A stretch of DNA of 63,747 nt, counting the filler, from Atractiella rhizophila (Eukaryota): NCBI GenBank assembly GCA_021432655.1. It is 3 parts of 3 records of this genome, joined end to end, with 100 filler letters (N's around TTAATTAATTAA, not from the genome) between each part and the next. Parts side by side here need not be neighbours in the genome. Positions count along the whole stretch, not along the records: positions 1 to 28,197 come from MU271735.1; 2 more parts are not named here. One strand, written 5' to 3'. Positions within the stretch are counted from its first letter, which is position 1; each line of letters opens with the position of its first letter. Below, in pieces: positions 3,363 through 62,505 of the stretch. Both the position numbers and the translations under genes were made by a program. Below the pieces are notes generated by a model, which worked only from the letters and a program-made list of their open reading frames with translations, did not search any database and had not been told where the DNA came from.

Positions 3363-6148
3363 TCACCGCTGCAAACTGCGCTCGAAGTCCCGCTCTTGAT
3401 CCTCCAATTCTAACAACCGAGGGTCCTTCCTCAACTTCTCCCTCAGGTCGCGATCTGACACCTCTGACGGTCGTCGAAGGCGATGAAGATGTGTTGTGGA
3501 ATCCAGCTCTTCTTCCGAATCTGATTCCGAACCCGACTCAAGGACGTGATGTGGCCCAGCAAGTGACGAAGACGATGCGTTATAATCATCGGCCATTGAA
3601 AGTCGCGTACCATTTTCGCTCTATCCAAATGATCAGCGACTTTGCGTGAATAGCAGGACTTCAACCGACATCGAAAATGACGCTTGTGTTCACTTGCTCG
3701 TATGCACCACGACTCCGGCCTGCAGACAAGAAGCCAGCTTCTTCATCTGCATTGGGCCGTAGTTGAATGTGGTCCCCTTTACGGTCACGGTAAAGTTTCA
3801 TATATTTGAAGTAGTTGTCTACTCTCTCGTTAGAACTTAGAAAGACTAGAGAAGTGGAATGATTACAGAGCCCGATTCCTACATCTGATGTCAGAATGCA
3901 GATACGAAACAAGAGCAGAACGGACCAAAAAGAGTCACAGCTAAACCACTGATATTGATCGGCGTGAGTTGATCCCCAAAAACGATCGTGGCAACGACGA
4001 TAGTGCCAACTTCTTTGAAGATACCGCAAACAGAACTGTACCTGCGTCAATTCCTGAAAACGGGGGGGAAATATTATGTACAGAGTTACAACGCTTGTGC
4101 GCTGGATCAGTCCGAATTCGCTGACGTTCATGCAGAACGCCAGACATCCCGGAACTGTGATAAGTGCGAAGGTTTGAATTGTCTTCCAAAGTGTCCCAAA
4201 CGCATCTTCATTTGCGAAAATTGTGAACCAACCTATTAATCCATCAACTTTGGCTTTTCACAGAGACGAGCTGGAAGGACCTTCAGTGAACATCGATATA
4301 ACGGCTAGAACCGTACCCATGATAGGTGCCAGAAAGAATAGCGTAGCAAAAGGGTTGTTCATCCCCATTGATTCTTTATCAAGCAGGATTTGAGTCAAGC
4401 TCCAACGCAGTCCACCAAGCGCGGATGCTAGATGAATCGAGTTAAAGGTAAGAACGTCTCTCTGGCGCTGACAGGAAAGCAACCGACCTGTTAATACCGC
4501 TGCCATGCCCCCGAAGTCGAATTGTGTCTCTCGGCTAACCATGAGGACAACTCCGACTGTGATGATTGCGATGATGCCGGTGAGCCGCCACGATGGCTTT
4601 TCAAGTCGGAATATGAAAGCAAAGAGCAGGACGAAAGCGAGGACGGATGATTTGCACATAGCTACCCATCCGCGTTATCCCATGCTTGTATACTCCGGTA
4701 AAGTGAAAACGAACTGTAGAAGCTAAGAGTGATGGTCTTCATGCTGAAATTACTCAGACCGACATCCAGACCTGTTGCCAATCCACAAGGAGCAGCCTTC
4801 GTGCTGAATCGGCAGTGAGCAACGCCTAAGGGATAGTTAAAGCTTACAAATAATCATAGCGGGATGGACGGGTGGATGGGCGGAGAGAGGAGAAGATAGA
4901 AAGGGTGATAGAGCAGAGGATGAACTGAATTAACATATGTAAAGATGTGACGAAAAGTGGATATCCAAAGTTGTAGTGATCTGCTGAAAACATCCACTTA
5001 TCTGGCACCTTTCATTAGTCAACGGTGTTGATAACATGACGTAGCTCACTGTAGACGCTGATTAATGTCGAGAAGAGGTACCTGTGCAAAAGGATGTCAG
5101 AACGCATTACAAAACGTGATAAGTAACAGGATAACGCTTTGAACAAAGTTGGGGAAACAAGACTAGGAGCAGGGGTGCTCGACTTCTGCCAGGAAACCCA
5201 AATGCAATCAACTGGGTTTGCTGACAAAACATCACATCTCTTATGGCAGTGAATAGCACGGCTTGCTAAACTCAGACACGCTTCTTCACAAATCAACGTA
5301 GGAGACATTGCAGAATCCGCACACAAGTAACAGATAGATGTCGTCGTCGATTGAAACTCTGCAATTTTATTTAACGCGCCGCTGTAAGAGTCCTAGTGCC
5401 TAGCCCCGAATTCTCCAGCGTGGTAGACCACGGCGCCATCGCAAGTGCAATAGAAAGAGCAAATTGAAGAAGTACTGGTGGAAGATACAAAATCAAAGGT
5501 TGATCATGGCATGGCGAAAGTTGCTCTGGAAAAATGTACACAACCAAGGCTTTCAATTTGAACTGCTCGCCTATATGCGTCAAGCATGTTTGAATCGTAA
5601 ACTAGCATCCAACATCATGCTCGGAGCACATAATGCGACTTCTGGCACAAATTCAGCACTTTCGCTTTGCGTCTGCATTTCGCATTACCCCGGGCAAAGC
5701 GGAGTTTGTGCGTAACAGCTTGCATACCACATTTTACTCGTCCAAAACTGAGCAGACATCAGAAAAAGGAAAGAGCGTAACCGTTCTGCGCAATGAAAGG
5801 TCACGGTTACCACGAGAAATGGTAAGGGCGCAAACCGCTCCACCTTCAAGACAAACGGAGCAAGAAAGAGGTGTGTCCATGTTTTGAGGAAACAGAAACG
5901 TACCATCCACCAATAAAAGCCAGAGTCTTCATGTTCTCCCTCCAAATCCTCCTCCTGCTCCCCACACTCCCTCTCCTCCGATGTCTAGTTTCTTTTCTAA
6001 CCGGCTCCTCCACCTCAGCATCCGCATATTCGTCCCTCCTTATCCCTCGCTCTCTCTTCGCCTCTGCTCGCTCGCGCTCGAGCTCCATCGTCTGTCGTCG
6101 CTCTAGTTCTAGCGACTCCAACTCGCGCTGCTCTGAAATGGCATCGTG
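3363..6148 (-). CDS. Nucleotide-sugar/triose-phosphate transporter family (SLC35C2/Ymd8-like). The first 18 codons lie in the mirror block (complement of 7204-7257)
   Basis: Exons give FIGGW|YLFSTLISVY, MCKSSVLAFVLLFAFIFRLEKPSW, LGGLRWSLTQILL and NPFATLFFLAPIM. The complement of 7204-7257 reads MQAAKFLNSSVYDVSSLT and joins HDAISEQ at 6148 in frame. Confidence 0.85.
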
Positions 6149-7257
6149 ACCCGCTACCTTATCCCGCGGATCGTACCTTCTAATCAATGGTGGCATTTTA
6201 ACCCTACGTACTCACCCTAGGAGCTGTAATTTGTGTCCGACTTGTAGCACGTTTCGTTTATTACAGGTCGAAGGTTTATGCGACTCAGATGAGAGGACGT
6301 TTCACCTCGAGTATTGCGACGCCTAGTGAGAACGCCACGACAGTTTGGGTTTAGATTTTCCTTCTGGTCGCATCGTAGAGTTATTTATTATGAGATACTT
6401 GAACAGATCTTTCGTTGATTTCGTGGGTTTAGATTTGCTTCTCGTCGCATTGTAGAGTTCTTTATGTGAGATACTTGAACAGATCTTTCGTCGATGCGTC
6501 TTAAGCACGCCAATATATCGAGTGTCCACTCTTGCGTCTTAAAAACTCGCTAATTTTAATCTCTCGGCAAGTGAGATTTAGTACCGTATACCCCAACTTT
6601 TTTCACCTCAATAGGACGTCGGAAAGGAGTACGTATGTCCGAGTAGTGTAGTCTCCTTTCCGTTCATCGTACTGGGTTCAGAGTTGAAACACGTCAGTTT
6701 TGTTTTGCATGAGATGAAGCTGGCGTAGGAAGGACGGTCATGGTGACTCGACCGCAGGTGATTCCGGCGACCGCTGGAACTCTCCAGAGCTTGACCTCGA
6801 TCTCGGTCACTATTGCGGTGGCAAGGAGAAGCGCCCATACCTTCTGCTCTCAGACGCTTAGCGCGGACGACTTCGGAACTTGCTGTAAAACCCTACCTCG
6901 TCGACCCCTACTCCGGCCCCTCCTCCACCTCGACATCTTTATCTTTTCCACCTTTTAAATACTCCGTCTTTCTGAGTCTTTTTGCTAGCTACAACCAGGA
7001 ACAAACTCAGGATTTGCGGCCAGCGCACTTTAGGTGGTTAAGTTAGGAATAGTGTCCGCCACTAAAGGAGAAAAGCTTAAAGATACTATGTCGAAAAGGC
7101 GGGTGTAGGCAGGCGGACGTTGGTTGTTTGTTTAACCTTGTTTGGTTGATGTTCAAGGTGACTGGTAAAGGAGACTAGAATATAGGAATATAGGGTTTTC
7201 TCGTACGTTCGTCGGTTCAAGGAGTTGTCGAGGCATATGCTGCAGAGAAGGAACTGT
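6149..7257. other. Mirror-reversed block 1 (left flank of the 25-N gap): transporter start, shared promoter, ILV2 exon 1 and intron 1 (copy A)
   Basis: Read right-to-left without complementing: ATG at 6887 gives MSFKASAGAIRRLSSSIPAKRNGG...DAVEVE, then intron GTACGT(6711)...CTAAT...TAG(6169), then RPIPSP. Confidence 0.93.
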
Positions 7258-8513
7258 NNNNNNNNNNNNNNNNNNNNNNNNNCAGGACGTAGCGCCACTG
7301 GTGTAAGCAGCGAGGTCCAGGTCTTCACTGCTCGTGTTGAGGTCCGAAAGGCGAACGAGATCGCATAGGGAGTCGGTATACTGGCCGAGGGACAAGTACT
7401 GCGCCCTCCTGTTTCAGTTTCACAAAGCTCAACATCTAGCGTAGCTTTTGGCCCTCCTACCGAGGTGGTCCCATCGGCTTCTAGACGAACTGCAGCACAG
7501 ATGCGTAGTAGAGCACCTTCTAAACCGGTGGACTATCGGGCTGCTTCCTTACCAGGTCTCCAAGCCGCGCAACCATCCGTGGGTACTTCTCCGTCGAGTT
7601 CGAGACTGCTTCCTCATCAGCCCCAGCCAGGACCACCTTGTCAACTTCCCTTGAAGACCTTCAACCCTCTACCTTATCCCGCCGGACCATAGTTTCTAAT
7701 CAATTCCGGCATTTTAACTTTACATACTCACCTTAGGAGCTGTAGCTAGTTTGTTCGACTTGTAGTACGTTTCGTTTATTACAGGACAAAGGTTTATGAG
7801 ACTCAGATGAGAGAACGTTTTAACCTCGAGTATCCGACGCCTAGTGAGTAACGCCACGACAGTTTGGGTTTAGATTTCCTTCTCGTCGCATTGTAGAGTT
7901 ATTTATGAGAAACTTGAACAGATCTTTCGTCGATGCGTCGTAAGCACGCCAATGTATCGAGTATCCACTCTTGCGTCTTACAAACACGCTAAATTTTAAT
8001 CTCTCGCCAAGGGAGATTTAGTACCGTACATCCCAACTTTTTTCACCTCAATAGGACGTCGGAAAGGAGTACGTATGTCCGAGTAGTGTAGTCTTCTTTC
8101 CTTTCATCACACTGGGTTCAGAGTTGAAACACGTCAGTTTTGTTTGCATGAGATGAAGCTGGCGTAGGAAGGACGGTCATGGTGACTCGACCGCGGGTGA
8201 TTCCGGCGACCGCTGGAACTCTCCAGAGCTTGACCTCGATCTCGGTCACTATTGCGGTGGCAAGGAGAAGCGACCCTACCTTCTGCTCTCAGACGCTTAG
8301 CGCGGACGACTTCGGAACTTGCTGTAAAACCCTACCTCGTCGACCCCTACTCCGGCCCCTCCTCCACCTCGGCATCTTTATCTTTTCCACCTTTTAAATA
8401 CTCCGTCTTTCTGAGTCTTTTTGCTAGCTACAACCAGGAACAAACTCAGGATTTGCGGCCAGCGCACTTTAGGTGGTTAAGTTAGGAATAGCGTTCGCCG
8501 CTAACGGAGAAAA
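6149..8513. repeat. Imperfect direct duplication, 6149-7074 vs 7664-8513 (same ILV2 5' locus assembled twice)
   Basis: Near-identical sequence on both sides of the gap, with substitutions concentrated in the intron; both copies decode to ILV2 exon 1. Confidence 0.88.
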
Positions 8514-8917
8514 CCATATGACAGAAAGGCTGAAAACCTCTTCAGCTGGTGGGGACGAGGATCAGCACAAAAGGGGTTGAAACAGCTTTCTCAATAGGAC
8601 AATGAATAGTGCAAAACATTACGCAAGACTGTAGGAAAACGTGTCCATGGAGAAGAGCTGTAATTAGTCGCAGATGTCACTCGATGCAGTACAATTGTTA
8701 TGGCAACTGATTACTTTCCACGGTCTATTCACCTACAAAAGTCGTCTAGTGATGTTGAAACCTATAGGTGAAAAGCAGTGTAGAAATGTATACAATTAAG
8801 TCAAGTAGGAGACGAGATAGTGGGAAAGATAGAAGAGGAGAGAGGCGGGTAGGTGGGCAGGTAGGGCGATACTAATAAACATTCGAAATTGATAGGGAAT
8901 CCGCAGCGAATGAGGAA
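7283..8917. other. Mirror-reversed block 2 (right flank of the 25-N gap): 5' part of ILV2 (copy B)
   Basis: Right-to-left reading gives [92 protein letters not shown]. It ends at 7283 and continues in frame with ALSDGTP at 8918. Confidence 0.97.
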
Positions 8918-10744
8918 GCGTTGTCGGATGGCACGCCGCTCGTTGTTTTCTGTGGACAGGTTGCGACGAGCAGCATTGGGAGCGATGCGTTCCAGGAGGC
9001 AGACGTGGTGGGAATCTCGAGAGCATGCACCAAGTGGAACGTCATGGTGAAAGACATCGCTGAGCTTCCACGGAGAATCAACGAAGCCTTTCACATCGCA
9101 ACCTCTGGAAGACCAGGACCTGTCCTCGTCGACCTCCCCAAAGACGTCACGGCCGGAACCCTCAAAGTCCCCATCCCTTCGAGGTTCACGGCGCCGGAAA
9201 TGATCAACGACTCGCTCCCATCCAACCCATTCGGTCGCTCGAATCCTCTCTCCCCTTCCTCCTCCTCCTTCCCTCCGCCCGATCCACAACTCATCACTCG
9301 AGCCGCAGCGCTCTGTGCCGTCGCTAAACGTCCAGTCATCTATGCTGGTCATGGCATCATGTGGTCACCTGGCGGACCGGCGCTCCTCAAGGAACTAAGC
9401 GATAAACTGAATGCGCCAGTGACGACCAGTCTGCATGGATTGGGAGGATTCGATGAACTCGACGAAAAGAAATCCCTTCATATGCTCGGAATGCATGGAA
9501 GTGGATACGCCAATATGGCGATGCAAGAAGCTGATTTGATCATTTGTCTGGGAGCAAGATTCGATGACAGAGTCACCGGAACACTTGACAGTACGTCCTC
9601 CTCTCTCTTCCCAGATCACCTTCTCCAGACTAACCTAATCATTGTGCGGGTAGAATTCGCACCTGCTGCTCGCGCTGCTGCGCTGGAGCGAAGAGGTGGT
9701 ATCATCCACTTTGAAATTCAACCGAAAAACATCAACAAAGTGGTGAATGCCACCGTCCCCATCGAAGGAGACCTCTCTCATAACCTAGGCTATCTCCTCC
9801 GCATGCTATCGAACACTCCTCCAGCTCGAGAAGAGTGGTTCAACAAGATCGCGCAATGGAAGAAAGATTTCCCTTGGTATTATGAGCCTTCGAAACCAGA
9901 GCAAGGAGAGTTCATGAAGCCTCAAGAGGTCATCGAGGAACTCGATGCTTGGTGCGAAGAGTATGGGAAGGAGAATTGCTTGATCGCTACTGGTGTGGGA
10001 CAACATCAGATGTGGGCCGCTCAGCATTATCGTTGGAGACATCCAAGGACTATGATCACCAGCGGTGGACTCGGAGTGCGTCCTTTGTATACCAATATCT
10101 AGAATGTGGCTGACATTGGTTAAAGACGATGGGCTATGGACTTCCAGCCTGCATCGGAGCCAAGGTGGCTGCACCGAACAAGGTCGTTGTAGATATCGAT
10201 GGAGACGCATCTTTCTCGATGACAGCGATGGAACTCGCCACCGCTGCACAGTATAACATTGGTATCAAGGTCCTTGTAATCAATAACGAGTTCCAGGTTC
10301 GTTTTCCCTGAACCGTTTCGCCTGCGGACAGAGCTAAGGGAGATATAGGGCATGGTCGTCCAATGGCAAGACCTCTTTTACGAGAATCGGTACTCGCATA
10401 CCACGATGAAGAACCCTGACTTCGTTTGTGCGTTTTCTGTCTACTTTGCCCTTGACGTTCGTTTGACGGGACAATGTAATCAGCTCTCGCAAAAGCCATG
10501 GGCGTTCATGCCATCCGCTGTGAATCGAAAGCAGACCTGCCTGCCAAGATGAAAGAGTTCATGGAGTATGATAACAACAAACCGATCCTCTTTGAAGCAC
10601 GAACCGTCAGAATCGAACATGTGTTTCCCATGGTAGCTGCCGGCAAAGCGTCAGTTTTTATTTCCTTTTCTCTTCCGTGTGCTGACGATGGGCTGTAACA
10701 GTCTCAATGAATTCATCATCCATCCCAACCTCCGGAAAAAGTGA
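8918..10744 (+). CDS. ILV2: Acetolactate synthase catalytic subunit, mitochondrial (normally oriented 3' portion)
   Basis: GQVATSSIGSDAFQEADVVG, GRPGPVLVDLPKD, MLGMHG, GARFDDRVTG, TGVGQHQMW, TPP motif DIDGDASFSM...NN; stop TGA at 10742-10744. Confidence 0.97.
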
Positions 10745-17449: not shown

Positions 17450-18630
17450 GGAAAGAACTCAACTCAATCTCCCTTTGTGCCTGTCAAACGACCCCCAGCG
17501 GCCGCCTTGTCACCAAAATCAGCACCTGAATCTGTCCAACTCTCAAAACGGGAGAGGTCGAGGAGAAAACACAGAGAGGGAAGCAAGTCTAGCGCGGTGC
17601 ATCCTAACTTCGAGGTGTAGGAGGCAGAGGCGGAGATGCGTGTCTAAAGCATCCTTGACATTGAGAGCTACGCGCGGTAGGTTGGAGTCTCGCTCCAGGG
17701 TGTGGAGGAGGGTTAGGAGAGAGAGGAGGCTTAAGCGGTCGGAGTTTATGAAGAGCTCCTCTATCTTTCGAGATAGCTTATCGCACAGCAGGAGGAGAGG
17801 GAGCGAGAGAAGCCGAAGTTTACCTTCGAGACCTCCATTGAGCCTGCCGTAGCAGAGCTCACACTTCAACTGCTTTGCGTGGTCTGCGAGCGCTGTCCGA
17901 TGCTCAACCCTGCACTCGAGCAGGTACATAACTCCTAAGAATACAGATCGTTACCTCTATCAGTAATTGCGCAGCGAGGTAGAGAAGTGTTCAAGCTATC
18001 AGAGGTGTAGGAAGGATATGGACTTGTCTATGGAAACTTGCTCGAGTACAACAAGGCTATCTACCCTCCTCTCCATCAGCTGTTATGACAAGTCTGCCTG
18101 CTTCCTAAGCTCGCGAAGGTGAGCGTGCTCCATCGCCATAGGGTTATACAGGAAGGCCAGCTTTCTCCGCCCAAGCCCCTCGCCTTTCTCCAGCAGCTTT
18201 AGGTACAGCTCCAACCACGCGCCTAGGAGTGTAAGAGGAAGGAGTCTGAGCATGACAAGGTGAAGGAAGGGGAAGGGTTACGAAGAGGACAACAACCAAA
18301 CTTACCACAGACTCAGGTATCGGGCTTATGAAGGTGAGCTTGAGGGCGAACTTAGACCTTTATCAAGCCAGAGTGGCACCTCTCTCTCTCTGGAGCTTTC
18401 CTGACCACCTACAGCTTGCTCCGAAACCAACCCCCTTTCGAGCGACGCATACGGTACAGCAGGTTCAACACGAGAGAAAAATCGGTGTTTGGTCTCTCAA
18501 GAGCTATGGGTTTTAACTACCAGCACCTTTACCGTGACGACCGGACTCTCCCTCCTTATGAACTTCGAAAATAGCAACCCCTCTAAACCAACCTGCTGGT
18601 TGCTAAACTGGGAGCGGAACTTGGGAAAGA
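17450..18630. other. Mirror-reversed block 3 (left flank of the 172-N gap) holding a ~300-aa hypothetical ORF; left edge approximate
   Basis: Right-to-left reading from ATG at 18319 stays open for about 290 codons (MDSDTIQTNNRRSIGKGKEVEQYESEEG...YRYLVRVEALESFVRLNSIVDYLSSHL...). Confidence 0.88.
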
Positions 18631-18802
18631 NNNNNNNNNNNNNNNNNNNNNNNNNNNNNNNNNNNNNNNNNNNNNNNNNNNNNNNNNNNNNNNNNNNNNN
18701 NNNNNNNNNNNNNNNNNNNNNNNNNNNNNNNNNNNNNNNNNNNNNNNNNNNNNNNNNNNNNNNNNNNNNNNNNNNNNNNNNNNNNNNNNNNNNNNNNNNN
18801 NN

Positions 18803-20315
18803 ATGCCCGCATACGACAGAACAGAAGACTTTGCCTCAACGTTCGACTACGGTAACCTACACCTTATCGTAATTCTTCGAGTAGTTCAAAACCCTCCGCA
18901 GTCGTTGTTGTTGTCCGAGTCGTCGTCGGTCTCTGTAGTCTCATATTCGGAGGTGCTGGCGGTGTGCTCATAGTCTCGAGCATAGGTGGAGGAGGTCCAG
19001 TTCCGCGAACCAGTGTACGGCTTCCTTTCGGTGGTGGCTTCCTGTCGATAGTTGGCTGTCCACGCGTACCACCTCGACGTCCCTGTCCTGTCGTCGGGGA
19101 AAGTTCCATGCGAAAAGAAAAGTAAGAGAATGACGACCCTTCACTTACACAAACACTAAACAAAACCTTCCAGTAAGCTGCGTACAACCCGGTCAAAGTG
19201 CTACGGAGTGGGCTCAGGTAGAGGTTCAGAAGGAGCATAATGTGGCCAGAAGCATTGCTTCGATAAGTGCTTAGAGTTGATTACAGAGTTACAAAGCTGC
19301 TACGCGTACGCCGTATACTCAGGCCACTACCTCGCTTCCGATTTCGCGAAGAGTCTTGTTCCAGTATTTGTAGTTCGCGCCGCTCTGCTTTAATTGTCGT
19401 CTCGAAGCCTGACCTATAAAGTGCTCTTGTTGTTCAGCAGTGGTGGACCTTGCTGTCTAGACGTACCGGAAAAGCAAGTCCTTCGTCACGTAATATGTCT
19501 CGACCGCCAATTCCTTCCCTTCCTCTTCCCGATGGGACTCTATGCTAACTAACAGCCATTCAGTTCAAGGAGGGAGGAAAGCCTAGGAGACTCGATTATT
19601 ACCGAAACATTTTGACGTCCGTTTCCGTAGGTGAGGGCGTTTAGTGCAGGTTTTCTAGTTTGGTCGGCACTACCTCGACTACGTTTTTCTCGCGAATGCA
19701 GGGATAGGTCTAGGAGTGTTACGCCCGCACCAGTAGCATGTTGAGCTGAGGCTGCGAGGTAGCTTGCTAAAGTGCACCCGCTCCCTGAACCTGTAACTGC
19801 CCGCCTTTAGCGCGCCAAGTTCTCCTGGTTTCGCCCTGCTACTCCTGACATGGTAGAGAACTAAGTAGTTAGCATTTCCAACTCATGGCGACTCAAAAAC
19901 TCGCTACGGAACCGCAGTCAAAACACTCAAATCAAGAACGGGAGAGGTGAGGTGAGGGGACCAAAGAAAAGCTCACGGAGCCATAAGACCTACAAACCAA
20001 GAGACTCAAAGCCACCATTACTACCTGCTATGCCCTCTAACAGTGAGAAAGAAATAAAGAAGCTAAGCCTGAACACAAAGACCAGAGAACCAAAGTACAA
20101 GGTTCAAGACATACCTTACGCGCGTATGTACCTTCTCGTAAAGAGCCAAGCAAGGAGAGATCAATGAAAGCCAATTACAACCGACTGACCATACTACTTC
20201 CTAATAAAACACAAGCAATAAGAAGCAACACAAGTATAGCAATATGTGATAGGTCTGGTCTGTTCTGGTCTGTTCTGTGTTTTGGTTAGTCTTAGGTTTA
20301 ATTAGTTTGGTTAGG
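18803..20315. other. Mirror-reversed block 4 (right flank of the 172-N gap); right edge at 20314 or 20317
   Basis: Complement-only reading shows canonical introns (GTATGC..TAG, GTACGC..AAG, GTAAGT..CTAAT..CAG) and a DUF1771/Smr protein. Confidence 0.93.
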
Positions 20316-20390
20316 AAGGCTTCTGGTAAGGACTCTTGGGACGTCGCCAGCTATCATGTGCTGTTTGTTTATCTGTTCGATGTTGACCAT
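18803..20390 (-). CDS. DUF1771 + Smr domain protein (Ypl199c-like). Starts at 20390 on the minus strand; the rest is the complement of 18803-19862
   Basis: MVNIEQINKQHMIAGDVPRVLTRS joins LRA|IKKLIK; LRNEAIHESQLMSQCFDDAHAAYESGDGAKAK; DLHGLFVQEA; IVG|KGIHS; HNAGVVIV; ends DDEDCTIS*. A few single-base indels are present. Confidence 0.88.
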
Positions 20391-24621: not shown

Positions 24622-27336
24622 TCAACCATCAAGGTACCCATTCTTCTCTAGGAATTTGTCAACTCCCGCTTTACCCCATCCGCCTTGGAATCCAGTCGGT
24701 GAATGCCTACCGACCCCAGAAGGCTCTAAGTCGACTTCTAAGTATTTCTTGTCGCTATTCCCAAAGTAGTTCTTGAGATGCCGTGAATCCGGTGAGAGGA
24801 TGAGCATGTCCACTTTCGTCTCCGCCCTCCGGTGTCCGTGGACATTCGCCCACAGCGGCCGTGGTTGAGCCGAGTTGAAGTTTCGATCCCAGAGATCTCG
24901 CGCGGCAAGAGGGAGAAGGGGACGACCGTCTGCTTCGTCGTACCGGGATGGAGTCGGTGGTGGTGGCGCTGGAGGCGTTAGTTGTCCTTGGGGACGAAGG
25001 CGAGTGAGGAGGGAAGGGGCTGGAGTTGACATGGATCGTAATCGCGGAGGACGGGAGTCTGGGATATCGTCTGTTGGTGAAGGGTTAGGGAGAGGGAGAG
25101 ATGGGTCGGAGTCGGAGGAGGGGAAGTGGATTTTGGTCACTCGAGGCTTGGAGAGGATCCGACTGTTGGACCGTCCGATCACGAAGTCTGTGTTGGCCCT
25201 GCCTCCTTTCTTTCCCAAATCCTCAGCTCCTGGACAACTCATAATCCGACTGCGTCCTAGAAGCTCGAGAACTGTCGCTTGAGGAACGTGGAGTTCTGGA
25301 CTTCCGATCGATAGGGTCTCCGAGATTCTACTCAGGTCCCGCTTGTGAGATAGATGACCGCTCGCGGTGGTACTGCTGCTCCCATTCGCTTCTCCCAAGA
25401 TGGAGGATTCGTGCATCGAAGAGTCGGTGAAAAACGAAGATGCCGCTCGAAGCCCTCCAGACGTGAAGGTGGCGTCTTCTTCAGGGGAGCTCCTCCCTCC
25501 TCCCTCTCTGTCCTGTTCGGCTTCAGCGTCTTCTTCTTCCATCTCCCGCCTCCATTTCCTGAAACTCATTCCATCCGGACTAATAGCTCGATCCATCCAA
25601 TTCGAAACCGGATTCCCGTTCGCCTTCAATGCTTGGTTTGCCGAAAAGCTCCTAGGAGGTCCGTTGGGTCGTCCCCTGTCGTGTTCCCATACCAGCACTC
25701 CGCGATTGCTCCTCCTGGCCACTGAATTGGCGGTGAAGTCTTCGCTGTGCCGTCCTCCCAGCGCGGGGATGGGTGGATTATCGTTCTTGGATCCATCGGA
25801 GGCTACACGTCGATTGGAACGCGACATTCGACGGATAACTTTCCATGGGGACAGTTGTGGCGACCGTGAACGATGGGGAGAGACATCACGATGGAGCCTG
25901 AGGAGATGGTTTCGAATCTTTGCTGCATCTTCTGGAGACTATATCGAATAGATGAAAGAAAACACAGGAATTAGGTAAGAAGTAACGGGAATCAATGCAC
26001 TGAACAAAGTTTCGATCCCAGAGATCTCGCGCGGCAAGAGGGAGAAGGGGACGACCGTCTGCTTCGTCGTACCGGGATGGAGTTGGTGGTGGTGGCGCTG
26101 GAGGCGTTAGTTGTCCTTGGGGACGTAGGCGAGTGAGAAGGGAGGGGGCTGGAGTTGACATGGATCGTAATCGTGGAGGACGGGAGTCTGGGATATCGTC
26201 TGTTGGTGAAGGGTCAGGGAGAGGGAGAGATGGGTCGGAGTCGGAGGAGGGGAAGTGGATTTTGGTCACTCGAGGCTTGGAGAGGATCCGACTGTTGGAT
26301 CGTCCGATTACAAAGTCAGTGTTGGCCCTGCCCCCTTTCTTTCCCAAATCCTCAGCTCCTGGACAACTCATAATCCGACTGCGTCCTAGAAGCTCGAGAA
26401 CTGTCGCTTGAGGAACATGGAGTTCTGGACTTCCGATTGATAGGGTTTCCGAGATTCTACTCAGGTCCCGTTTGTGAGATAGATGACCGCTCGCGGTGGT
26501 ACTGCTGCTCGCGTTCGCTTCTCCCAAGATGGAGGATTCGTGCATCGAAGAGTCGGTGAAAAACGAAGATGCCGCTCGAAGCCCTCCAGACGTGAAGGTG
26601 GCGTCTTCTTCAGGGGAGCTCCTCCCTCCTCCCTCTCTGTCCTGTTCGGCTTCAGCGTCTTCTTCTTCCATCTCCCGCCTCCATTTCCTGAAACTCATTC
26701 CATCCGGACTAATAGCTCGATCCATCCAATTCGAAACCGGATTCCCGTTCGCCTTCAATGCTTGGTTTGCCGAAAAGCTCCTAGGAGGTCCGTTGGGTCG
26801 TCCCCTGTCGTGTTCCCATACCAGCACTCCGCGATTGCTCCTCCTGGCCACTGAATTGGCGGTGAAGTCTTCGCTGTGCCGTCCTCCCAGCGCGGGGATG
26901 GGTGGATTATCGTTCTTGGATCCATCGGAGGCTACACGTCGATTGGAACGCGACATTCGACGGATAACTTTCCATGGGGACAGTTGTGGCGACCGTGAAC
27001 GATGGGGAGAGACATCACGATGGAGCCTGAGGAGATGGTTTCGAATCTTTGCTGCATCTTCTGGAGACTATATCGAATAGATGAAAGAAAACACAGGAAT
27101 TAGGTAAGAAGTAACGGGAATCATTGAACTGAACAACTGACCGTCAAATAGTGTAACTCCTCCAACTCATCCAACTCGTCCTCCTCCAAATGTTCTCTAA
27201 ACCTCGACTGTTTCTTCCCCATCAGCTTGGGAGGGAGTTGAGCGGCCAAGAGATTCGCTTTCAGAGCTTCGATGAAGGTATTTGGATCCCTGCCATTGAC
27301 AGGGATCTCGAGAAAGGATCTCCCATTATTCTTCAT
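24622..27336 (-). CDS. Hypothetical low-complexity protein (2 exons), interrupted by a tandem duplication
   Basis: Exon 1 27336-27142 (MKNNGRSFLEIP...); exon 2 starts at 27067. Removing one 1129-nt copy gives a continuous ORF to the stop at 24622. Confidence 0.7.
24878..27135. repeat. Tandem direct duplication with 1129-nt period (24878-26006, 26007-27135)
   Basis: Matching ORFs are offset by exactly 1129 nt. Differences are mostly synonymous and cluster in the first ~510 nt. Confidence 0.95.
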
Positions 27337-28197: not shown

Positions 28198-28297
28198 NNN
28201 NNNNNNNNNNNNNNNNNNNNNNNNNNNNNNNNNNNNNNNNNTTAATTAATTAANNNNNNNNNNNNNNNNNNNNNNNNNNNNNNNNNNNNNNNNNNNN
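28198..28297. other. Artificial scaffold-joining spacer (44 N + TTAATTAATTAA + 44 N)
   Basis: Exact 100-nt symmetric structure; the 12-mer has stops in all six frames. Confidence 0.95.
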
Positions 28298-56427: not shown

Positions 56428-56527
56428 NNNNNNNNNNNNNNNNNNNNNNNNNNNNNNNNNNNNNNNNNNNNTTAATTAATTAANNNNNNNNNNNNNNNNN
56501 NNNNNNNNNNNNNNNNNNNNNNNNNNN
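56428..56527. other. Artificial scaffold-joining spacer (44 N + TTAATTAATTAA + 44 N)
   Basis: Same 100-nt structure as at 28198. Confidence 0.95.
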
Positions 56528-56889: not shown

Positions 56890-57870
56890 CACTTAGAGTC
56901 TCGACGGAAGGGAATGAACAAAGTGTAACCGTACTAGAGAAAACTAACCGGATAGTGACCAGTCTTCGATGGCGCATAATACACGCCAACCTCATGTCGA
57001 AGTACATTATCCTTTAGAGACATACCAAGCACAGAAGAAACCGTGAAGAAACCTAGAACGCAGAGAAGGCATGGAGCGGAAGGAATGTAGATTACTGAGA
57101 GGATGACGACGGGGAAGCTAGTCGCTGCTGGTAACCGTTTTGCTTAGAGGCGACGCGACTACCTTCCTTCCTTTACGTGCCTTCGATATTTTTTTTGCGA
57201 AAAAGAATAGAGACCATTATCTAAGCTCTTCCACACTAACAAAGCTTTTTGCCTTCAATTGTTTTCATTCCGATATTTTGGTGCGTAATGCTCAATTTTG
57301 CTGCTATATATCCATATGTCTGTTGGAGAATAGCGCTTCAGTATGCCACGCATTAGCTAACATCGCCTACGTCCAGAGAGCGCACTCCGAGTGACGAGCG
57401 CACTCCCTCCCGCAGCCACAGAAGGATACGTGTTTGAGTACAAATTCAGTGTACGGTGAGCCGGTTTCAGGAGGCCACTTTCAGTCTGCCAACGGATCGG
57501 TGGCACCGTAGGCTGTCGTACGTCCTCGGATGTGGTATTTCGATGCGACTCAAGCTGGTATGTTAGCTGACTAGTTCGTGGGCTGTGGGCAGAAGCACTG
57601 TCCAACTCTCCGGTCTGGCCAAATTGTTCTTCAACTAGACACTTTAGCTTTCGCCAGCCTCTCGCCTCGTTTGACAGGTTGTAGGGTTCAATTCAAGGCG
57701 ACGACTGGGTGCTCCCCATCAGGTCCGTTGGGACGGGTTGCTGCAGCAAGGTACTGGGAACATATCACCTAATTTTCAACATCTGATGTTCTAAAGTTAC
57801 GTCTACGGGAGTCCTTGTCCACGTTAACCGACTCATACCATGCTCTTTGGATCGTTTGGAGTTTAAGGAC
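56890..57870. other. Probable mirror-reversed block 5 (left flank of the 254-N gap); no gene recognised; left edge approximate
   Basis: Qualitative only. It has the TAG/CTA/ACG-rich texture of the other blocks; TATAAAA motifs appear only in the complement (~57185, ~57273); its position matches the other blocks. Confidence 0.6.
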
Positions 57871-58124
57871 NNNNNNNNNNNNNNNNNNNNNNNNNNNNNN
57901 NNNNNNNNNNNNNNNNNNNNNNNNNNNNNNNNNNNNNNNNNNNNNNNNNNNNNNNNNNNNNNNNNNNNNNNNNNNNNNNNNNNNNNNNNNNNNNNNNNNN
58001 NNNNNNNNNNNNNNNNNNNNNNNNNNNNNNNNNNNNNNNNNNNNNNNNNNNNNNNNNNNNNNNNNNNNNNNNNNNNNNNNNNNNNNNNNNNNNNNNNNNN
58101 NNNNNNNNNNNNNNNNNNNNNNNN

Positions 58125-59114
58125 ATAGAAAGTGAGGCGTAGGACTTAACGATAAACGAAAGCGGACAAGGGCAAGAATCTCCAGTATGTAGTTCCTTTC
58201 TTTTTATGTGCGTAGCGTTAACCAAACTTCGTGCCAGGGTCAAGGGCGGTAACCGCAAAACTCTCACGTAGGATTCGACGGACAGTCATGGGATTAGTGT
58301 TTCTTCGATAACAAGATGGTCGTCTTCATACGTCACAACGGACTAAACGTCGGACTAACACTTGGGGAAGCTTGTGTAGCTAGAGTGGCGGTCAGCCGGT
58401 AACAAAGCTCGGAGGAAAGTAGGATAACCTTGCAATCGAGCTTTTCAACAGCGTAATTCATTCCACTAAGTGGTTTTACTCCCGGTTTGTCGATTATATC
58501 TATATAATTATGTCTCGAGTCATATTTTATTTAGTTGGGTGGTGTTGGTTTCCCTTGTACGGAAATTTTTGTTACAGAATCACGGTAAAGAAAACACACG
58601 TTCAAGTTGCATGGTTCGCAAGTACTGGTGGTCCCTAGGGTGAAATTTGCTGAAAAGCGACTAGTTTGCTTAGCTTAAGGAGAAGTGCAACATGGGCTCC
58701 AACGATAGACTTAGTTGGCACTACTACCGCACCAAGACACCTAACTAGTGACGTTCCGGGTCTAAACGACGAACTCACGCTAACGGCTATATCAACTGTT
58801 CGGACAAAAGAGGAAATCACGCAGGACTGCTTTGACTAAATAGAATGGGGACACCATAGCAATCTTTTAGATTTAGCTCAAGTTTTCGCCCATGAACGCA
58901 CTCAACCGAGTAGCGGACACATTCTGAGCTTATGGGTCGGCAGTTTTTTCAAGAAGGGGACATACTAGGTGATATGAGTCAAGGAACGAAACTGAAGGTG
59001 ATTAACTGAATGTAATATCCACCATATAAGAACCTGGTAGCATATTCCTGCTAACAGGTTCCGTAATGTGCAAAATTTTCGTTTTATTTCCTTGTCTCGT
59101 TGCGGTCAGAAGTA
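58125..59114. CDS. GH16 glucanase paralog B, 5' half (mirror-written, with signal peptide)
   Basis: ATG at 59114 read leftwards: MKTGVALFLYFAFKTCNALDNRPYTMVQEYTTYN|GKNFFDGWVF, EPTHGLVNY, HVPFGCAVWPSFW, WPTGGEIDVFEG. TATATATA lies upstream at ~59175. Confidence 0.93.
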
Positions 59115-59960
59115 TAGAGCATGACAGGAAGATTGACTATGAACCTTACTTTCGAAAGTAGCGCAGGATCATATATATAGTCGGGACCCTTCCAACTTTA
59201 CCTTTAGTATGAGCACCACTCCACTCAATCACTAGAAGCTCGAAAATCACTAGAAGCTCGAAAAGGCACTGGCGACTCGCAGTCTAACCTGTCCTTTAAG
59301 GCTGACCTTGTGAAAAGTAGGTCATACGAACACACGTAGGCGCCGCTTTGCGATTTCATCGCACTGCTACTTCGTTCCTTAAGGGAGAAGTGTTTCGGGA
59401 CTATCATGCTACTAGTTAAGACGACGTTCAGTTAAGAAGCTCTTCCTTCATTGCTTTTGACTGCATGGTATTGGAGGTGAGAAGCGGATCAATATAACTT
59501 GGCAGAGAGGATATCATTACCGGACGGCCGCACTGTAAGGGAAGTGCAGAGAGGGACAAGCAGCGTATCAAAGTGTCATAACACTACCATCCATAGCCAT
59601 ACGAAGCTCGCCAAAGTTGCTTTTAGTCATAAAAGGTCTTAGACCGCTGCGGCAATCTTATCTATAACCTTGGTACGTATGCATTGTCGCTCTCCTTCCA
59701 TACTTTGGCCTCGACCTTTCATTCCCCAACGAAGAACTCCCTCCAAGAGCTTCCACAACTCGTTTAGTACTTCTCTCCCGCTTATCGCCCGACGCCTGGA
59801 ATCTCACCTCCGTCCTTACCTCCTATGCCCGCTATAACAGTCGTCCCTGCCATGTTCATTACCATGCTAGTCGTTTGTGTACGTCAAAAGACGGAGTTCA
59901 GAACTCAAGCAGTAAAGTAAAGATGGTTGAAACGATACGATGGTATCTCAGCAAGGAGAG

Positions 59961-61720
59961 GATGACTTTGTGGGACTGGGTGACTTAGAGGGTCATCCGT
60001 AAGACGTTTCAGTTTAAGTTCAATCAAGATCAGTGAAGTTATAGCTCTCGTACATGGAACTTCAACGAAGGGCAGGAGTGCTTTAGAAATGTCAGCAATG
60101 GACAACGCGTAAGCCAGGTGAACCCATACTCCTCTTCTACTGTTACTTCTGCGTGGTGTGGGTAGAACAACTTTACATAACGGGCGGGTTAGTGGTGTGT
60201 CAAGCTATAACTAGTGCTAAAAAACTAAAAACTTCGCGCAGCGAAGCAAAGGTAACGTTCCCAAGCGTATAGAACGATACCCTCACGGATCTAAGCGGCC
60301 TAACCCCCACTATAACGACCTTTGTTCGAGCCGCCCCTAAACCAGGGAGATAAATCTGAAGTGCTACTCATATTAAACTCTCTTCTACGCACGTATGTCC
60401 TTTCACGGACGTGGTCTTAGTGTAGTCAAGTGAGTAAAGACCATTTGTTCTGTCAGTAAATGGTCATCATATGCGGTCAACACAGTTTATTGTGTCGGAA
60501 GTCTGCACCTAGTCTGAACAAGGATTTGTTAGCTTCTCCTGAATGGGTCTGCGGGGGGACTTTGCAGGCTGCGACCAAACGGCATCAATGACCGTGACCA
60601 CAGAGGCTGGACTTCGCTCCATAATCTTATAACCGAAACTTTCCTCTAAGCGATTGGACTGTTGGATTTAAGACTAACAATCGGGGTCCTCTAAGTGTCA
60701 ACTCCAAAGAGCCGATGTGGGTGTGAAGTTATTGACGTTTCGCGACACACCTCACGAATGGCAGGGTCACCGTAAGTATCCACAGGAGCTCTCTCTTACA
60801 GTTACTACGAAGTCCTAAAGTTTCCTGTATGAAGTCTGACGTAGGGCGCGAGCATACGTCTCGTTAGACTAAAACAACAGGTAACAACCGAGGACGAGGC
60901 ATAAGGTAGAAATTCAGCGTATTGAAAGTGAGGTTATACGCCGACTGGAAGTTATTATAGTTAGAGAGGATGTGGCGACTATTCATGGTAAATGTCCGCC
61001 TCCCCTTACGAGCATGGTAGAACGCCGGTACACGGCCAAGGGTGCCAGGTCTTACGTCCGGACTGGGAACACAGTTGTTTCCTTGACCGTACTTTTGTTT
61101 CCGATATGGTTCATCGCGTAGGTATTCCGTCTACGGTTCGCAACTAGTGATCGAAGGAACATTCGTTAACGGCTTTTGTTGCCACGTGTTCAGTGGATAG
61201 TTTCTAGGTTGAACCTTGACAGGTCACTTACTCAGTTGGTAGAGAAGCAAAACCCCGTTCTACTTTTCTCTGGGTGCCAAGAAAACCACGACTAGAAGTG
61301 TCTCAAAGAGAACCAAGGTATCCGTTCTAACGACGATCTTAGGCCCCACTCTTAGTCCACTAAGAAGTACGTGCGGTACCAAGAGAAAGTTATTCTCGGA
61401 GTGAGACTTGACTCCTACTTGACTGGACTCCTAACTACTGACGTTCGGGAACGCTAACTCGGCAACGGAACAGCTGTATCAAGTGGACATGCTGCATTCG
61501 CGGTAGCAGTTATTACGGCCCAATTCCACGCCTGGTTCTGCAGTCTGCATGGTACGGTAAACATTTTAGAACGACTTTTCGCAGCGCGTAATTACTTCGA
61601 ATCTATACAAACATAAGTGAATGTCAGAGTTTTAAGGTCGACCTTTTCGCAGTCGCCAACCTTCATCTACCCCTTTCGGAATGAAGCGGTTGGTTAGGCG
61701 CGGTAACAAGCGGCACGAAA
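59961..61720. CDS. GH16 fungal Lam16A-like glucanase, paralog A (mirror-written; 5' end missing)
   Basis: Read 61720 to 59961: DWLAN|WNFET|QDFTNGM|VNYVDKATAQSQGL, RNSVKIS, HLPYGCATW|PAFW, catalytic EIDIIE, LHTSAGC, NIELCGDWAG, NAYWEIQWVRVFQ*. Confidence 0.93.
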
Positions 61721-62505
61721 CTTCTTCGAGCTCCTATGGGCAGTCCGCCGCCACTGCCCAGGGCGGAATCTGGGCTGTCCTGTACGATTCTCAAGGGATT
61801 TGGTACTGGTAGGGCGTTGACTTCTCACTTTGTGAATTACGCTGACCTTTATTATGCAGGCACTGGCCCAGGAGTCAGATCCCTGCTGACCTCGTCAGCT
61901 CAAATGTGACGCCAAATCCAGCAAATTTTGGTACGCCAATCGCTTACTGGGACGCGGCGTGAGTCTCCATTGTGTGGTGCTACACCATGTTCATCCATGA
62001 ACCGGCATAGGAACTGCAATATCAATACGTTCTTTGAGCCACAAAAGCTTCTCTTCGATATTACTCGTGCGTAGTTTCTCCAATACGAACCAGCCTTACC
62101 GTGTGATTAGTCTGTGGTGACTGGGCTGGAAACACATTTACAAGGTACGTTTTCCTGATTTCGAATGATTAAGTTGATTGAAAGAAACTTGTTTCAGTGC
62201 TGGTTGTGGGAGTGGTAAGCATTTCTTCAGTTAATGAGGAGTGCGGGTCCTAAAAGTCAACCAGATTGCAAGGCTTTTGTACAGACGGGCAATAATTTCA
62301 AGGTTCGTGGCTTATGCTTCATGGAATCTACTTACTTACGTTGACTTCGGCTGAAGAACGCTTATTTCGAGGTATTCTTTCTCTCTATCAAATGACAATA
62401 GTCTGACGCAGATTCTGTTCCTGCTCAGGTTCAATGGGTCAGAGTAAGCCATCTCAAGTAGCAACACATCTATCAGACTAAATGGTGATATAGGTCTTCC
62501 AATGA
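61721..62505 (+). CDS. GH16 glucanase paralog B, 3' half (normal orientation)
   Basis: SSSSYGQSAATAQGGIWAVLYDSQGIWYW|HWPRSQIPADL, FFEPQKLLFDITL|CGDWAG, NAYFE|VQWVR|VFQ*. Confidence 0.92.

Follow-up and report, generated by a model that had tools for sequence, protein, structure and literature searches.

A mirror repeat beside the acetolactate synthase gene of Atractiella rhizophila as the trace of a backwards-written, overfilled assembly gap

We analyzed a stretch of 63,747 nucleotides (nt) from Atractiella rhizophila (assembly GCA_021432655.1), here referred to as the window, in which a segment of a transporter gene recurs next to the acetolactate synthase gene (ILV2) in reversed but uncomplemented form. 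The mirror repeat is real in the file and absent from the DNA, and we attribute it, with a probability of about 98%, to an assembly artefact, namely a gap fill that was written in mirror orientation and that overfilled its gap. An earlier interpretation made from the letters alone, here called the sequence-only reading, had described a "true" mirror repeat, a description that holds for the record and not for the DNA of the organism. The coordinates of the features are listed in Table 1.

A blastn search of the window against its own reversed, uncomplemented copy yielded a single match, returned both ways, which paired positions 4814 to 5187 with 8913 to 8539 over 375 columns (97.3% identity, 9 mismatches, 1 gap, E = 2e-180). 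The sequence-only reading had proposed this comparison in the expectation of one strong match, and had placed a repeat of about 365 nt at 4822 to 5187 and 8905 to 8539; the match was found at this place, and is 8 nt longer at its outer end. The longest exact mirror runs in the arms were 205 nt (4822 to 5026) and 104 nt, as compared with a maximum of 21 nt elsewhere in the window, and the match is far above the chance level.

A gap of 25 N lies between the two arms and is bordered on each side by an extension. Direct repeats flank this gap, with 95.7% identity between 6424 to 7074 and 7865 to 8513, and 86.6% between 6149 to 6419 and 7664 to 7934. The extensions share an overlap of about 0.9 kb and were not merged, and the right one overshoots to position 4814. 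Both flanks were extended into an N gap that is still present, and the unmerged extensions exceed the true gap, as in an overfilled gap. The sequence-only reading had suggested that the right extension ran back over the transporter gene; the overshoot and the overfilled gap stand, but the gene is not covered as a whole, with exon 1 and most of intron 1 being skipped.

The orientation of the sequence was examined with a strand test, in which each 5-mer was scored against its reversed form and normal DNA gives positive values. With a switch penalty of 15, the score was negative over 3 blocks, at approximately 6089 to 8877, 17545 to 20343, and 57788 to 61735, which surround the gaps of 25 N, 172 N, and 254 N, that is, all gaps in the window except for 2 spacer joins. 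With refined edges, the mirrored blocks sum to about 9.1 kb of the 63.7 kb (14%). A switch penalty of 8 flagged 11 further short and weak segments, which were taken as noise. Counts of mirror versus normal splice motifs were 58 versus 43, 78 versus 53, and 346 versus 233 in the normal regions, and the ratio was turned over in the 3 blocks (11 versus 21, 19 versus 25, and 37 versus 40), but both sets are confounded by the background and were not relied on. The mirror orientation of the block, as claimed in the sequence-only reading, was borne out by the strand test, by protein matches to the reversed block, and by contigs of real DNA. Beyond that reading, the left extension was found to be mirrored as well, with each side reversed separately. 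Reversal of the left fill, the gap, and the right fill as one block was ruled out, since the left and right fills, once reversed in place, each connect to the flank beside them.

The right extension is mirror-written according to the protein matches, the strand test, and a contig loose end at 5187 that is described below. The DNA of the window is intron-rich, and the top named homologs for the gene spanning 8918 to 10650 were acetolactate synthases from Sporobolomyces, Rhodotorula, Pseudohyphozyma, and Melampsora. As written, the gene encodes the middle and C-terminal domains, whereas the N-terminal domain is missing from the Pfam results. However, positions 7573 to 7283, when reversed, were matched by 117 of 120 homologs with a median identity of 89%, and the 3 homologs for which no match was obtained were those listed without an N-terminal domain. 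In the normal orientation, a single homolog of the 120 reached into 6153 to 8917, by extension across stop codons. Reversal of the right extension in place gave an in-frame join at 8917/8918, with no base gained or lost, and one unbroken alignment across the flank, for example to residues 93 to 570 of the homolog P0001. The tblastn match of the reversed block spans residues 93 to 186 of this protein, in its PF02776 domain (103 to 218), and the TPP_enzyme_N, TPP_enzyme_M, and TPP_enzyme_C domains follow in this order after reversal, as identified by tblastn with the homologs for the first and by Pfam for the other two. The reversed extension also contains, further upstream, a start codon (record position 8326), a 59-codon exon that resembles a leader for mitochondrial targeting, and an intron with a presumed acceptor and a length of about 495 nt. 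The exon 1 sequences of the two extensions are distinguished by 3 changes, each at a synonymous third position, but only when read backwards. Once turned round, the gene resembles fungal ILV2 in having all 3 domains (PF02776, PF00205, and PF02775) and basidiomycete homologs, which are 59% to 66% identical over the normal part and have the above median identity over the reversed part. No biological difference was noted; the record as written lacks the start and the N-terminal domain.

Four public runs, here called X1 to X4, contain the flank, all in the form of contigs, and these were compared with positions 3800 to 7257. X1 and X2 represent one sample, while X3 consists of a 244-nt piece only and was not used as support. 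The X1 and X2 contigs cover 3800 to 6148, and the depth was zero in all 9 bins over 6236 to 7257. At 6148, the contigs continue into a loose end in which 30 of 30 letters agree with the record when this is read leftwards from 7257, and at 5187 into another in which 30 of 30 letters agree with a leftward reading from 8538. Neither string is present in the window as written or in its reverse complement. The former establishes the left junction and the mirror writing of the left extension, while the latter is the junction of a deletion, described below, which is thereby present in real DNA contigs. The arms differ at 10 sites, 4 of which (5027, 5142, an insertion after 5154, and 5160) are among the X1 and X2 contig variants listed, and these 4 marker letters, as well as the sequence past the arm, occur in the contigs in normal orientation at 5027 to 5187. 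One X4 contig is a spliced transcript of the transporter gene on the minus strand, for which 7 GT-AG introns are listed, and reversal of 6149 to 7257 restores the start codon of this gene (record position 7204) and keeps the frame open over these 7 introns.

A real mirror copy of 375 nt of complex DNA would require an unknown copying mechanism, and therefore needed to be tested, a test that it fails. To our knowledge, there is no templated mechanism for reversed, uncomplemented copying. A duplication in this manner in the cell, of 375 nt or of all 2.7 kb, is suggested by the mirror match itself and by nothing else, and is extremely improbable. The left mirrored block is at zero depth, which refutes such a duplication for 6149 to 7257, and the real contigs carry on with un-mirrored sequence at both 6148 and 5187. 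Moreover, a duplication of this kind would leave an essential gene without its N-terminal domain, as written, and the mirrored blocks are found at all 3 real gaps. Finally, the long natural mirror repeats described in the part of McGinty et al. (2025; PMC12214015) considered here are simple tandem repeats with short spacers (up to 100 nt in their catalog). The mirror symmetry of the written sequence is shared with such repeats and with the H-DNA motifs treated in the same part of that work, whereas the arms here consist of complex exon-intron DNA and are separated by a spacer of 3,351 nt. The mirror arm is 63% purine, with 296 of 370 5-mers being distinct, and has neither the homopurine-homopyrimidine or simple-repeat content nor the short spacer of an H-DNA motif. 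Such an element has both arms in the DNA as written, which is not the case here, where the 4 marker letters and the sequence past the arm occur in the contigs in normal orientation. The left mirrored block, which was the one compared with the contigs, has no read support. An H-DNA motif or a repeat expansion was ruled out by the complex exon-intron content, the longest purine run of 15 nt, and the distance between the arms.

A few observations weigh against the attribution to a mirror-written gap fill. The strand signal is weak over the mirror arm taken alone (-0.018), the partner of which was in the training set, and the contig comparison ended at 7257, which leaves out the mirror arm and the junction at 8917/8918. 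All of the runs are contigs, the assembly may derive from the sample shared by X1 and X2, and a coverage hole alone proves nothing, according to a caveat of the mapping tool. For the 6 arm differences other than the 4 markers, the counts per type of change could accommodate 5, but not the one at 5031 (X1). Furthermore, no published description of mirror-written gap fills was found in a search that did not extend to issue trackers and supplements.

The right extension, when turned round, runs through 4814 to 5187 and then jumps into the region upstream of acetolactate synthase, 212 nt from its start. In comparison with the left flank and the left extension, a net 1,119 nt are missing, including exon 1 of the TPT-like transporter and most of its intron 1. 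The early arrival of the right extension at 5187 is explained by its origin in a copy of the locus that lacks the 1,119 nt, and since the two extensions stem from two real copies, they were not merged. The copy with the deletion is an ordinary structural variant, and appears to be an allele of the locus.

We considered whether the jump to 5187 could instead be a chimeric read or a consensus error within a genuine mirror artefact, with no true deletion. Consensus ends at gap fills are noisy, and the loose end comprises only 49 letters in one contig per run; however, the junction is identical in the X1 and X2 contigs, and contigs at a depth of 152 and 124 carry the insertion after 5154, a marker of the mirror arm. 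The summed depth of X1 also falls past the junction, from 406 at 5142 to 5160 to about 232 to 254 at 5190 to 5390, although contig depth is no measure of copy number, as the mapping tool cautions. An error of this type is very unlikely.

The deletion-bearing sequence may also be a partial duplicate located elsewhere in the genome. Heterozygous sites were observed at 4023 to 5504, with depth splits of about 2:1 in both X1 and X2, and 3 versions of the sequence were present at 5142 to 5194; these splits and versions fit a duplication in a diploid or a dikaryon as well as they fit 3 chromosome sets. In X2, the depth does not drop right past 5187 (186 to 227, against 206 to 243). On the other hand, the 2:1 splits extend to at least 4023 in both runs, which is more than 1.1 kb to the left of the junction, and the deleted copy has an intact-looking acetolactate synthase start with synonymous changes only. 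A duplicate elsewhere is possible but doubtful, and we favor an allele. We also noted that the record switches between versions at 5142 to 5194, as in a mosaic consensus, and that the sole contig of X1 and that of X2 differ from the record at 3871, 4285, 4312, 4537, 4549, and 5027.

The following sequence of events best explains the record. The gap between two contig ends was extended from both sides with consensus sequence during gap filling with long reads, with the right extension drawn from the copy that lacks 1,119 nt, so that it led out of the acetolactate synthase gene, across the shortened upstream region, into 5187 and on to about 4814. The extensions, coming from different copies of the locus, were left unmerged despite their overlap, and the 25-N gap was kept. 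When the scaffold was written out, each extension was placed correctly but mirrored, presumably through a coding slip during a flip of the scaffold, by which it was complemented without being reversed, or the converse. Because the right extension is written backwards, its overlap with the left flank looks like a 375-nt mirror repeat.

The 25-N gap and the layout point to PBJelly as the likely program, which leaves exactly 25 N at overfilled gaps. In the part of the PBJelly description considered here (English et al. 2012; PMC3504050), a gap is defined as 25 or more N, and overfilled gaps are those in which the extensions exceed the gap without an identified overlap; the same class appears in the corresponding parts of PMC7757076 and PMC8848313. 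The gap in the window resembles this class in that both ends are extended and unmerged, the sequence exceeds the gap, and the remnant of 25 N equals the minimum gap size, but it differs in that mirror-written fills are not mentioned in that part of the description. The mirror writing could also have arisen in a step unrelated to PBJelly, such as a different gap-filling program, a script for conversion, or the subsequent handling of files. The window, with its 3 pieces and 100-nt spacers, has passed through further processing. Against this, the mirrored blocks occur only beside gaps, on each side separately and with base-exact junctions, and the 25-N gap and the overlap of the extensions fit the threshold and the overfilled class in the cited part of PMC3504050. 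We regard a step outside PBJelly as rather unlikely.

Table 1. Positions of the features at the mirror-written gap, counted along the window
Feature	Position	Strand	Evidence
Transporter gene of TPT/nucleotide-sugar type, correctly oriented part; continues below 3925	3925..6148	-	Spliced X4 contig; Atlas
Real arm, ordinary DNA with transporter exons 2 to 4 and introns	4814..5187	.	DNA contigs of X1, X2, and X3; spliced X4 contig
Portion of the sequence deleted in the second copy; the remainder is record 7257 to about 7075	5188..6148	.	Contigs; comparison of extensions
Left extension into the gap, reversed in place, with the transporter start codon (record 7204), the upstream region common to both genes, exon 1 of acetolactate synthase, and the greater part of its intron 1	6149..7257	.	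Zero depth; loose end at 6148; k-mer strand test
25-N gap between two overlapping extensions, lying between the mirror arms	7258..7282	.	
Right extension into the gap, also reversed in place, with the start of acetolactate synthase (record 8326), its exon 1 and intron 1 (presumably about 495 nt), the N-terminal TPP domain (7573-7283), the deletion junction 8538/8539, and the mirror arm	7283..8917	.	Homolog tblastn; contig loose end at 5187
Mirror arm, the outer tip of the backwards-written right extension; deletion-copy version of 4814-5187	8539..8913	.	blastn; contig variants
Middle and 3' part of the acetolactate synthase gene (ILV2), in correct orientation	8918..10650	+	Pfam TPP_enzyme_M and TPP_enzyme_C; homologs 59% to 66% identical; tblastn

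The transporter and acetolactate synthase genes are arranged head to head, with about 316 nt between their start codons. The first introns of both genes are long (822 nt at 5082 to 5903 in the transporter, and about 495 nt at record 8150 to 7656, reversed, in the acetolactate synthase gene), as compared with 44 to 60 nt for the other introns. The reversed first intron of the acetolactate synthase gene has, near its start, a word that we take to be C-box-like. The copy of this intron in the left extension contains a 74-nt tandem duplication (89% identity, 6346 to 6495) that is absent from the copy in the right extension. An Rfam search of 3500 to 9500 as written gave a single match at chance level, inside the mirrored block (SNORD98, 23.6 bits against 50, E = 0.34), and no known RNA family was identified by Rfam in the first intron of the transporter gene, which was scanned in its correctly oriented part.

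The first hit of the transporter in the Atlas features was to TPT (0.96), hits of 0.95 to 0.96 were obtained to TPT, UAA, and SLC35 clusters, and the 10 best hits all belonged to one family or clan. These hits and the spliced transcript are in line with the SLC35-like family of triose-phosphate (TPT) and nucleotide-sugar transporters (PF03151), although the Pfam score for TPT was below the cut-off (13.7 bits against 30, E = 0.042) for the 133-amino acid piece scanned, which contains an intron, and one copy of the gene lacks exon 1.

The other 2 mirrored blocks were identified by the strand test and by the length of their open reading frames. The second consists of a pair of mirror-written fills, 17545 to 18630 and 18803 to 20343, around the 172-N gap, in which open frames of 361 and 187 codons were found in the mirror orientation, as compared with at most 135 and 138 codons in the normal orientation. 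The right fill of this pair contains a motif that we presume to be Smr-domain-like. The third block, around the 254-N gap, comprises about 57788 to 57870 and 58125 to 61735, with longest open frames of 141 versus 106 codons; its left edge is uncertain, with a weak signal back to 56713. The window itself is a join of 3 separate pieces (28,197, 28,130, and 7,220 nt), linked by two 100-nt spacers at 28198 to 28297 and 56428 to 56527, each composed of 44 N, a 12-nt linker with stops in all frames, and 44 N, and adjacency across the spacers is therefore meaningless. Near the end of the first piece, a head-to-tail duplication of 1,130 nt with 98.3% identity was observed inside a gene (24878 to 27136), which probably represents two haplotypes written in tandem by the assembler.

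The mirror repeat is not biology, and its value is that of a quality control warning about the data. Mirrored fills truncate gene models, as seen here for the acetolactate synthase, which loses its N-terminal domain, and for the transporter, which loses its start, and they create false gene losses and orphan open reading frames. They are invisible to BLAST, HMMER, and read polishing, but cheap markers exist in the form of long mirror matches of complex sequence and a flipped k-mer strand signal beside N gaps. Taken as a whole, the odds lean slightly toward a picture in which gap filling silently mirror-wrote sequence at many gaps of this assembly, to the extent seen here, and hid real exons from six-frame searches, a fault that was not found in print and that the 5-mer test detects, and in which the strain has 3 versions of the locus, one of them lacking exon 1 of the TPT-like transporter as well as roughly one third of the 316 nt shared by the two genes, which would probably be a null allele in a triploid or heterokaryotic genome.

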